Source of the DNA: a plasmid
Direction: 5' to 3' (one strand)
DNA: 64,000 nucleotides
Assembly: GCF_056746865.1 (NCBI RefSeq)
Contig: NZ_JBWKMP010000004.1
Position 1 is the first letter of the stretch. Each line of letters starts with the position of its first letter. The position numbers were made by a program. Below are positions 25,901-28,900 of the stretch, piece after piece.

Positions 25901-28900
25901 TGCTGTGTCGTCTGATATGCCTCAATTTCATCAACTGGCTTTTCGGTAGTCTGTAAATATTGTGCCCGCGAAAAATGGTCTGGCAGGAGGCTGCGCAGTT
26001 ACCGGATATATATAAGATGGGATCCCGCTTTGCGGGGCTTCGGCCAGTCAGCATTATCACTCATATGATATTTTTGTGTGTGGCCTTCCATGCCGCTGTC
26101 GCGGCATAACCGGTATTTGACAATGTATACAATATTAATTTTTCTGCACACTGTTAATTTGGGAAAGTGATTTCTTCGTGGTCGGAACCCGGATGCCTTT
26201 ACTGCTCTTTATCCAGGTATAAATCCGGTAAACCTCTGATGCGTAGGCAAGACGTCTCTGGTTCTGGCGTTCGGTCTTCCTGAATCCGGCATTGTATGCA
26301 CCAACGGCCTCCCAGGAGACGCCCCATTTTTTAAAGGCTATTGCCAGATAATAAGCACCGGTATAAATGTTCATACAGGGATCTGTTGTCAGATGTTCCG
26401 GCTTAATTCCATAGCGGGCCAGTTCGTTAAAATGCTGGGAATCTACCTGCATCAGTCCGCTGCCATATCCCGTTACCGGATTAATACCGATGGCATTAAC
26501 CCGGTAACGGGATTCTTTCCATGATATCGCTCTCAGTAAATCCGGGTCTATTTTGTAATCCCGACCTGCAAGATCAAAGCAATCGGCGGCTTCGCAGATC
26601 CCATTTATAAACATCAGGCAGATTGCTAACATCCATTTTTTCATTTTTCCACCTCTGGTGACTTTATCCGTAAATAATTTAACCCACTCCACAAAAAGGC
26701 TCAACAGGTTGGTGGTTCTCACCACCAAAAGCACCACACCCCACGCAAAAACAAGTTTTTGCTGATTTGCTTTTTGAATCATTAGCTTATGTTTTAAATA
26801 ATGTATTTTAATTTATTTTACATTATTAAATAGGGGCGTTGACGACCCTATGGCGACCCTATGGCGACCCTTGTTAGGGTCAGTACTGACAAATTTTATG
26901 AAAAACATTTGGATATATTAGGGCCGCCCCTAGCAGCGCCGTGCGTTTTTTTATAGTATGCCCCTAGGGGCGCTGCTAGGGGTGCTCTTCTTTTTTCAGA
27001 CCAAACTATGAGTAAATGAAATAAAACACTTGTTTCAGAATATAAAAGGTACTGTCTTATGGCCAGAGTAAATCTGTATATCAGTAATGAGGTTCATGAA
27101 AAAATTAACATGATTGTTGAAAAGCGTCGTCAGGAGGGAGCAAGAGATAAAGATATAAGCCTTTCAGGAACTGCTTCAATGCTTCTTGAATTGGGGCTTC
27201 GCGTATATGATGCACAGATGGAGCGTAAAGAGTCTGCGTTTAACCAGACAGAGTTTAATAAACTTCTTCTTGAATGTGTTGTAAAAACACAGTCAACGGT
27301 GGCAAAGATTTTAGGTATTGAGTCTCTCAGTCCTCATGTCTCCGGAAACCCGAAGTTTGAATATGCCAGTATGGTTGACGATATCAGAGAGAAAGTGTCT
27401 GTTGAGATGGACCGGTTTTTTCCAAAAAATGATGATGAATAAATGAAAATGAAGTTTGAGTTGGTTCAAATATAAGAATTTTTATGATTCAAAAAGATGA
27501 CAATACGTCAGATAATTAGTATATTAATTACGTGGTTAATGCCACGTTAAAAATTGAAACTGAAAATCGCCGATGCAGGGAGGTCTGAACTCCCTGCATC
27601 GACTGTCCATAGAATCCTTAACGGAGGTTCCTATGTGTGCGCTGGATCGTAGAGAAAGGCCACTTAACAGTCAATCTGTAAATAAGTACATCCTTAACGT
27701 TCAGAATATCTACAGAAATTCTCCCGTTCCGGTTTGTGTCCGTAACAAAAACCGGAAAATCCTTTATGCCAATGGGGCTTTTATTGAACTCTTTTCCAGA
27801 GAAGATAAACCCTTATCCGGAGAGAGTTATATACGTCTGCAGGTTGAAATTTTTCTTTCATCACTTGAACTGGAATGCCAGGCTCTTGGACATGGCTCTG
27901 CATTTTGTCGTCGTTTTAATTTTCATGGCGAAATCTATCAGATAAGGATGGAGAATGTTTCTTTTTATAATGACGAATCTGTTGTTTTATGGCAAATTAA
28001 TCCGTTTCCTGATTATCCATTTTTTGCGTTAAGTCAGAGTGGAAGTAATACAAATACTTCTGATAAATTAACGATATGGAATGATCTTTCCCCCGGGACA
28101 TTGCTTGTTTTCTCTTTTTATATGCTGGGTGTTGGTCATGCAACAATTGCCAGAGAATTGGGTATTACAGACAGAGCATCTGAGGATCGAATTAAACCAG
28201 TTAAACGGAAAATAAAAGAATTTTTTGAACACTTTGATTTATTCAGAGTGTCATGTATCTATAAAGGGAAAATAGATTTGCTATTAAATATAATTCGTGA
28301 ATTTTATAGCGTTAAGTAAATGTTAAATAAGGCACGCCAATTTTGGCGTGTTTTTTTTCGTCGGTTTCTGTGCAATCATAATTTTATTAGTCGGGAAACA
28401 GAGGTGAATTGAGTGAGGAGGCGTAACGCGAGAGGCGGTATAAGCAGAACAGTCTCGGTGTATCTCGATGAAGATACAAATAACCGACTTATTAAGGCCA
28501 AAGATCGTAGTGGAAGAAGTAAAACGATAGAAGTCCAGATCCGTCTCAGAGATCATCTGAAACGATTTCCTGATTTCTATAACGAAGAAATATTCAGGGA
28601 GGTGACCGAAGAGAGCGAGTCAACATTTAAAGAACTTTAGTTTTTATCTATCAATATTAAACAGAGGAATCATATGGACGCCGTTTTAAGTGTTCAGGGT
28701 GCTTCTGCGCCCGTCAAAAAGAAGTCGTTTTTTTCCAAATTCACTCGTCTGAATATGCTTCGCCTGGCTCGCGCTGTGATCCCGGCTGCTGTTCTGATGA
28801 TGTTCTTCCCGCAACTGGCGATGGCCGCTAGCAGCAGTGGTCAGGACCTGATGGCAAGTGGTAACAACACGGTTAAGGCGACCTTCGGTAAGGACTCCAG

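Follow-up and report, generated by a model that had tools for sequence, protein, structure and literature searches.

The stretch between gene X and traM on this plasmid raises the question of what kind of transfer origin it holds, and of which relaxase and accessory proteins that origin would recognize. We examined it within a window of 64,000 nucleotides, the whole stretch of plasmid DNA that was analysed. Judged by its sequence and setting, the region is very probably the ordinary working oriT of an F-like (MOBF12/MPF-F) conjugative plasmid of the pHN7A8/IncFII type. An oriT of this kind is already known biology, and the present understanding of F-like conjugation is unchallenged by it. The view taken in a sequence-only reading of the same DNA, that an F-like oriT lies here, is upheld by a unique exact nick motif, by the gene X/traM setting and by the tra genes downstream; alignment of the nic motif with the F, R100 and R1-type oriTs likewise matches it to an F-like relaxase substrate, identical to that of F. 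Protein binding and cleavage are what we infer in the following from sequence identity, from the positions of sites and from alleles that change together. The features that bound and define the nick region are:

26135 to 26644, minus strand: gene X (orf169), lytic transglycosylase of 169 aa with an MKKWML start (Pfam SLT); bounds the oriT on the leading-region side
26709 to 26728, unstranded: inverted repeat TTGGTGGT-GAGA-ACCACCAA, beside the nick toward the leading region
26725 to 26746, minus strand: nic core, 5'-GCGTGGGGTGT/GGTGCTTTTGG-3', on the transferred strand; candidate binding site of the TraI trans-esterase domain
54341 to 59611, plus strand: traI, cognate relaxase/helicase of 1756 aa (Pfam TrwC relaxase, E = 6.9e-80)

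For comparison we used F (NC_002483.1), R100 (NC_002134.1) and pV085-c (NZ_AP014877.1), an R1-type plasmid standing in for R1 itself. The latter was found with a sequence that we take to be the TraM of R1; the TraM of pV085-c is 100% identical to this sequence, for which there are 329 records at 99% identity or more.

Only one exact match to the 22-nt sequence GCGTGGGGTGTGGTGCTTTTGG exists in the 64-kb window, at 26725-26746 on the minus strand, with none expected by chance when up to three mismatches are allowed (100 shuffles). Read directly from the sequence, the T/G step of the F-type nick falls between 26736 and 26735, which are T141' and G140' in F numbering, and it is there that the sequence-only reading had also placed it on the minus strand. 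Since the motif lies on that strand, the 5' end made by nicking points toward the leading region, just as it does in F. Alignment and BLAST found no differences from F between 26640 and about 26768, a span that runs from gene X past the nick as far as about +33 (positions are counted from the nick, with +1 at 26736), and the 22-mer used in the published cleavage assays of F TraI36 lies within this identical segment (PMC2504302). F, R100 and the R1-type plasmid all carry the inverted repeat at 26709-26728 unchanged, and every F-like oriT in the comparison conserves it; when the T-strand is folded, the repeat gives a hairpin of 8 bp, with a stability not significantly above that of shuffled sequences (z = -1.2). 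A conserved nick-core sequence is present on the transferred strand, as in the oriTs of MOBF12 group A, and the oriT is placed between gene X and traM, as expected for that group; a cognate TraI with N-terminal catalytic tyrosines is encoded on the same element. Downstream of traM follow the FinP/traJ leader, traJ, traY, traA, the rest of the tra operon, traD (52098-54341) and traI, and upstream of the oriT lie ssb, psiB and hok/sok in a leading region of F type. The product of gene X is 100% identical to that of R100.

In the cryo-EM structure of the F relaxosome, the TraI trans-esterase spans -2 to +9 from the nick, IHFa +23 to +60, three TraY molecules lined up as a train +61 to +90 and TraM at sbmC +93 to +143, with IHFb, sbmB and sbmA lying further toward traM and IHFb adjoining sbmB (PMC12117103). 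The window has the same order of sites as the F oriT (nic, IHFa, TraY, sbmC, IHFb, sbmB, sbmA, traM; PMC12117103), whereas across IHFa and the TraY sites it shares only 43-60% identity with F. The corresponding features next to the nick, together with the traY gene, are:

26763 to 26789, unstranded: candidate IHFa-equivalent, TGATTTGCTTTTTGAATCATTAGCTTA, assigned by position; 25 of 27 bases as in the R1 IHF sequence (PMC12117103)
26801 to 26823, unstranded: probable TraY subsites (sbyC/sbyA equivalent), with ATGT at 26801, ATTT, and inverted ACAT at 26820, by likeness to R1
28413 to 28640, plus strand: traY (75 aa, single ribbon-helix-helix; Pfam TraY), R1 type

These features resemble R1. The R1 IHF sequence (PMC12117103) is present as an exact copy in pV085-c and with two changes in its 27 bases in the window. 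TraY is a ribbon-helix-helix protein that occupies direct and inverted subsites beside IHFa, and its proposed subsites in R1 are ATGT, ATTT and inverted ACAT, beginning 11 bp past the IHF sequence (PMC12117103). The gap between the end of the IHF sequence and the ATGT at 26801 is exactly 11 bp here, as in R1; in window coordinates, the F TraY train of +61 to +90 corresponds to 26796-26825, and 26790-26819 is 100% identical to pV085-c (BLAST). All the elements of an R1-type IHFa/TraY module, namely the IHF sequence, the 11-bp gap, the three subsites and a 75-aa TraY, were thus found. The window TraY, a single-domain protein, is 96% identical to that of the R1-type plasmid, 48% to that of R100 and 28% to that of F, which is a 131-aa protein of tandem type. 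The IHFa-equivalent holds AATCATTAGCTTA, one mismatch from WATCAANNNNTTR; a scan of the whole window with the IHF consensus gave 39 matches against 46 expected, not above chance, and the candidate is assigned by its position, the F IHFa span of +23 to +60 corresponding to 26758-26795. The predicted IHF and TraY sites sit in an A/T-rich stretch that the sequence-only reading had left unflagged.

Beyond the TraY subsites lies an array of short repeats, followed some way downstream by traM:

26833 to 26881, unstranded: sbmC-equivalent predicted TraM site, five pentamers in 11-bp phase, +98 to +142 from the nick
27059 to 27442, plus strand: traM (127 aa; Pfam Tra_M, E = 2.8e-52), with beta-ribbon residues R3 and N5

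The pentamers begin at 26833 (GGGGC), 26844, 26855 and 26866 (GACCC) and 26877 (GGGTC), in exact 11-bp steps, and the direct repeat GACCCTATGGCGACCCTATGGCGACCC falls at 26844-26870; this repeat had been noticed before, at 26856-26880, which is about 12 nt too far to the right. Eight such pentamers are found in the intergenic region, where 1.5 are expected, and a chain of five occurred in none of 2000 shuffles, although these statistics are optimistic because the motif was defined after sight of the data. At the same distances from the nick, the plasmids compared carry the following motifs:

Window: GGGGC at +98, GACCC at +109, GACCC at +120, GACCC at +131, GGGTC at +142
R100: GAGTC at +98, GATCC at +109, GACCC at +120, GACTC at +131, GGATC at +142
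R1-type plasmid pV085-c: GATTC at +98, GAATC at +109 and GATTC at +120 only
F, at sbmC: hexamer AGCGGT at +97

The positions of the sites are fixed across plasmids, and the motif found at them varies with the TraM allele; the TraM of R1 and of pED208 recognizes GANTC, whereas F TraM recognizes A(G/C)CG(G/C)T (PMC3159463). A layout with sbmC on the traM side of IHFb, in which the array would be a TraY or IHFb site, was also considered and is ruled out by the published site order (PMC12117103).

Between the array and traM, the following features were placed by alignment with F:

26882 to 26917, unstranded: A/T-rich spacer, IHFb-equivalent by position, conserved in the alignment of window, F and R100
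26918 to 26945, unstranded: sbmB-equivalent predicted TraM site, holding the left arm of the inverted repeat (26927-26940); aligns with F GGGGTGCTGCTAGCGGCGCGG
26958 to 26986, unstranded: sbmA-equivalent predicted TraM site, ATGCCCCTAGGGGCGCTGCTAGGGGTGCT, holding the right arm (26969-26982)

The spacer, which aligns as GTACTGAC...AAAAACATT...TATATTAGGG, is a candidate IHFb-equivalent by its position. An inverted repeat had previously been seen around 26925-26985; it proved to have perfect arms of 14 nt, CCCCTAGCAGCGCC and GGCGCTGCTAGGGG, that are best read as TraM sites. In the sbmB-equivalent, the CTAG at +195 is kept in the window, F and R100. The sbmA-equivalent aligns with the F palindrome ACCGCTAGGGGCGCTGCTAGCGGT, and its differences from F are a symmetric swap: the outer hexamers ACCGCT and AGCGGT of F are replaced by CCCCT and AGGGGT, while the inner sequence AGGGGCGCTGCT and the three CTAG positions are unchanged between the two. 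Both the F TraM motif and the symmetry of sbmA have been described (PMC3159463). The sbmA-equivalent probably overlaps the traM promoter region. Since a sigma-70 scan from sbmA to the start of traM (26985-27058) gave no convincing traM promoter, the autoregulation of traM by TraM that may operate here is drawn from F only.

The nic motif had been described as of F/R100 type, and the nick region could accordingly be assigned to the R100 specificity class, or the F and R100 relaxases could be equivalent on a nick that they share. The flanks of the nick are indeed identical between F and R100, but the core itself is of F type in the window (GGGGTGT/GG) and differs by two bases, at 145' and 147', from that of R100 (TAGTGTGT/GG). 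In alignment with NC_002483.1 and NC_002134.1 the T-strand reads GCGTGGGGTGT/GG in the window and GCGTAGTGTGT/GG in R100, and the corresponding 22-mers are TTTGCGTGGGGTGTGGTGCTTT for the F type of the window and TTTGCGTAGTGTGTGGTGCTTT for the R100 variant; read on the plus strand, window and F share CCCCACGC, where R100 has ACTACGC. The enzyme encoded by the window is similarly F-like, with 97% identity to F over TraI residues 1-330, the first 30 residues, including Y16/Y17, being identical; at positions 193 and 201 it has Q and R, as in F, where R100 has R and Q. Residues 193 and 201 of TraI reportedly set specificity, a result ascribed to Harley and Schildbach in 2003. The window thus bears the marks of the F class (G at 145', G at 147', Gln193 and Arg201), and those of the R100 class (T at 145', A at 147' and the R100 residues at TraI 193 and 201) are absent from it. 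Because the F-type core is matched by Q193 and R201, site and enzyme agree and are both of F type rather than 'F/R100 type', so that the F part of the earlier description stands and the R100 part does not. In favor of a shared specificity, the TraI of R100-1 is said to tolerate the two-base difference, a finding credited to Fekete and Frost in 2000 (J Bacteriol 182:4022). Against it, F TraI shows high sensitivity to the change of a single base at 141', 142' or 144', adjoining the nick, although the R100-specific positions 145' and 147' lie outside the changes tested with F TraI (PMC2504302). On balance we consider membership of an R100 or shared F/R100 nick class highly improbable.

A comparable choice arises for the repeats, which had been put forward as candidate sites of TraY or TraM. 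That TraY should bind the GACCC repeats would fit with its use of direct and inverted subsites by IHFa (PMC12117103), and the three direct copies with inverted ones resemble a TraY train of 'two direct, one inverted'. The array starts only at +98, however, past the F TraY train (+61 to +90) and within the F sbmC span, and pV085-c, with a TraY 96% identical to that of the window, has no GACCC repeat at all and carries GANTC at the same positions. The segment 26790-26819 is fully conserved in pV085-c even though the GACCC array is replaced there, and from this comparison the array changes with the TraM allele, not with the TraY allele. TraY binding to the array is therefore improbable; lying inside the F sbmC span and being absent from a plasmid with a window-like TraY, the GACCC repeats are best assigned to TraM, and of the two proteins proposed earlier only TraM is retained. 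The least probable of the alternatives is that the 14-nt inverted repeat acts mainly as an RNA or DNA hairpin, a terminator or cruciform, instead of as a pair of protein sites. A terminator scan did find stem-loops with T runs on the plus strand at 26959-26984, 26966-26989 and 26935-26947, and four terminator-like sites in place of 1.2 expected. Yet the two arms, separated by 28 nt, can be aligned base for base to sbmB and sbmA of F, the differences between F and the window are symmetric and fall inside the known TraM hexamer positions (PMC3159463), and there is no plus-strand gene upstream in need of a terminator. The reading of both arms as TraM sites is thus kept in what follows.

Comparison with pV085-c delimits the segment to which these TraM sites belong. 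By BLAST, identity between pV085-c and the window is 99.3% over 24567-26830; homology is then lost and returns from 27101, and for this reason we take the stretch between about 26831 and about 27100 as a separate cassette. It contains all the predicted TraM sites and the TraM N-terminal DNA-binding domain. The two plasmids share an F-type nick core, and differ in that everything from sbmC through the N-terminal domain of TraM is replaced, the R1-type TraM having K3 and Q5. The proteins follow the same division: TraJ and TraY are 97% and 96% identical to the R1 type, whereas TraM reaches only 76%. R100 comes nearest to the cassette, at up to 80-87% identity when windows of 30 nt are compared. 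On these alignments the oriT is a natural three-part mosaic, composed of an F-type nick core with its TraI, an R1-type IHFa/TraY module with TraY and TraJ, and the TraM cassette. TraJ is unrelated to its F counterpart (22% identity) and only 25% identical to that of R100.

The TraM of the window is 88% identical to that of R100, 86% to that of F and 76% to that of the R1 type. In pED208, the N-terminal domains of TraM are ribbon-helix-helix domains, and residues 3, 5 and 7 of the beta-ribbon set specificity (PMC3159463). Residues 3 and 5 of the alleles compared are as follows:

F: K3/N5
R1: K3/Q5
R100: R3/I5
Window: R3/N5

Sites of the R1/pED208 type (GANTC repeats read by K3, Q5 and Y7) are not found in the window, whose oriT has a single GANTC, inside the IHF site, against ten in the R1-type plasmid. 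Nor are sites of the F type, since the window has none of the A(G/C)CG(G/C)T hexamers, of which F has three, and R3 in place of K3; the F-like layout of sites and the inner sbmA sequence are conserved despite the absence of the hexamers. With R100 the window has in common the register of five pentamers at +98 to +142 and R3, but residue 5 is N instead of I and the pentamer sequences differ, being mixed in R100 where the GACCC of the window is uniform. The structure of pED208 TraM on sbmA (PDB 3ON0; PMC3159463) offers a model for a tetrameric TraM reading short phased motifs, although there the motif is GANTC and alternate sites are spaced by 12 bp, compared with 11-bp spacing and another pentamer in the window. 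A full-text literature search with TraM N-terminal peptides gave no match, and because that search was empty the allele is not tied here to the classical ColB4-K98 or P307 types; the window TraM allele and its pentamer motif appear to have had no direct prior study.

It is possible, though we put it at somewhat less than an even chance, that the TraM cassette (about 26831-27100; R3/N5; G(A/C)CCC pentamers in 11-bp phase) constitutes a separate specificity class, functionally unlike those of F, R1 and R100. With the same reserve, such a TraM-oriT class would be biochemically uncharacterized and would have entered, by recombination, a backbone that is R1-like and has a nick and TraI of F type. 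If this were true, an epidemic plasmid lineage would form its own mobilization group, and the series K3/N5, R3/N5 and R3/I5 would provide a natural test of how the TraM ribbon reads DNA. The contacts of cognate TraM with oriT and with TraD are main determinants of specificity (PMC3159463), and for this reason the statement in the sequence-only reading that the nic motif defines which plasmids can be mobilized is incomplete: the nic motif is not the sole determinant, and binding at the TraM sites is also a main one (PMC3159463).

By analogy with F, a relaxosome may be proposed for this oriT. IHF at about 26763-26789 would bend the DNA into a hairpin, R1-type TraY dimers would occupy the ATGT, ATTT and ACAT subsites at about 26801-26823, and the two together would position TraI, encoded at 54341-59611. 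Its trans-esterase domain would bind GGGGTGT/GG on the minus strand, cut between 26736 and 26735 and stay on the 5' end. The minus strand would then enter the recipient 5' to 3', with gene X and the leading region, at lower coordinates, going first and the tra operon last. TraM tetramers would bind at the equivalents of sbmC (26833-26881), sbmB (26918-26945) and sbmA (26958-26986); TraM so bound would couple the relaxosome to TraD, and would probably repress traM.

The plasmid combines nick and TraI of F type with TraY and TraJ of R1 type and a TraM allele of its own, a combination that should predict which helper plasmids are able to mobilize the oriT when it is cloned, and which small oriT-mimic plasmids can be mobilized by this plasmid. 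The practical value is otherwise limited to locating where, on a pHN7A8-like IncFII resistance plasmid, the oriT, the nick and the sites for accessory proteins lie. Both the oriT and the cassette are widespread. Hundreds of sequenced plasmids, many of them from E. coli and K. pneumoniae, match the 501 bp around the oriT at 100%, including NC_019073.1, which we take to be pHN7A8, and this 501-bp region is found at 99% identity or more in 652 PLSDB records, most of them typed as conjugative, MOBF and MPF_F. For the TraM cassette (26831-27200), PLSDB has 719 records with an identity of at least 99% and a further 372 at 95-99%; many plasmids of K. pneumoniae match it at 100%, as does NC_019073.1, an E. 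coli plasmid of 76,878 bp that comes from a dog. A blaCTX-M gene and a blaTEM segment are also present in the window.

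The longest open reading frame for gene X, the lytic transglycosylase gene that bounds oriT on the leading-region side, encodes 215 aa (26135-26782, minus strand) and extends over the nick as well as the IHF site; this version, or one of 200 aa, appears in several public annotations. The 169-aa form starts with MKKWML at 26644 and has an N-terminus resembling a signal peptide. This shorter form is probably the real gene X, and the longer annotations therefore likely over-extend into oriT.

A perfect palindrome of 56 bp, composed of two 28-nt arms with zero spacer, lies ahead of the 3' end of gene X, which is convergent with the DUF932 gene (25017-25838); the stop codon and final bases of the latter fall inside it.

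Palindrome overlapping the end of the DUF932 gene
25835-25890: palindrome arms, ATGATAATATAAGTAAAGCCCCGAAAAA / TTTTTCGGGGCTTTACTTATATTATCAT

Sequence comparison showed that F, R100 and the R1-type plasmid all keep the palindrome, at 96-100%. It may act as a bidirectional terminator or as a leading-region single-strand signal. The leading region also carries a sok RNA belonging to a hok/sok-type post-segregational killing system.

Antitoxin RNA of the leading region
23363-23539: sok antitoxin RNA (Rfam RF01794, 88.9 bits)

TraJ is encoded within 27573-28319, in the frame of the PGAP annotation, and comprises 228 aa when counted from the ATG at 27633. Its PAS fold is clear (Pfam E = 5e-17). The protein is 97% identical to TraJ of the R1-type plasmid, whereas its identity to the F and R100 proteins is only 22-25%. 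The FinOP components are as follows.

Elements of FinOP fertility inhibition
27563-27639, minus strand: FinP antisense RNA (Rfam, 91 bits)
within 27530-27639, plus strand: traJ 5' UTR (Rfam, 117.8 bits)
60432-60992: FinO, intact, 186 aa

Both RNA matches score well over the Rfam gathering scores. Taken with the intact FinO, they indicate that the plasmid probably has an active FinOP system of fertility inhibition.

Two beta-lactamase open reading frames are present, at 3606-4343 and 5125-6000. The CTX-M family enzyme, on the minus strand, is complete (291 aa; profile match of 626.8 bits). The TEM-family frame covers profile positions 43-286 only, with a score under the family cut-off. This points either to truncation of blaTEM or to an artefact caused by the chosen ORF start.
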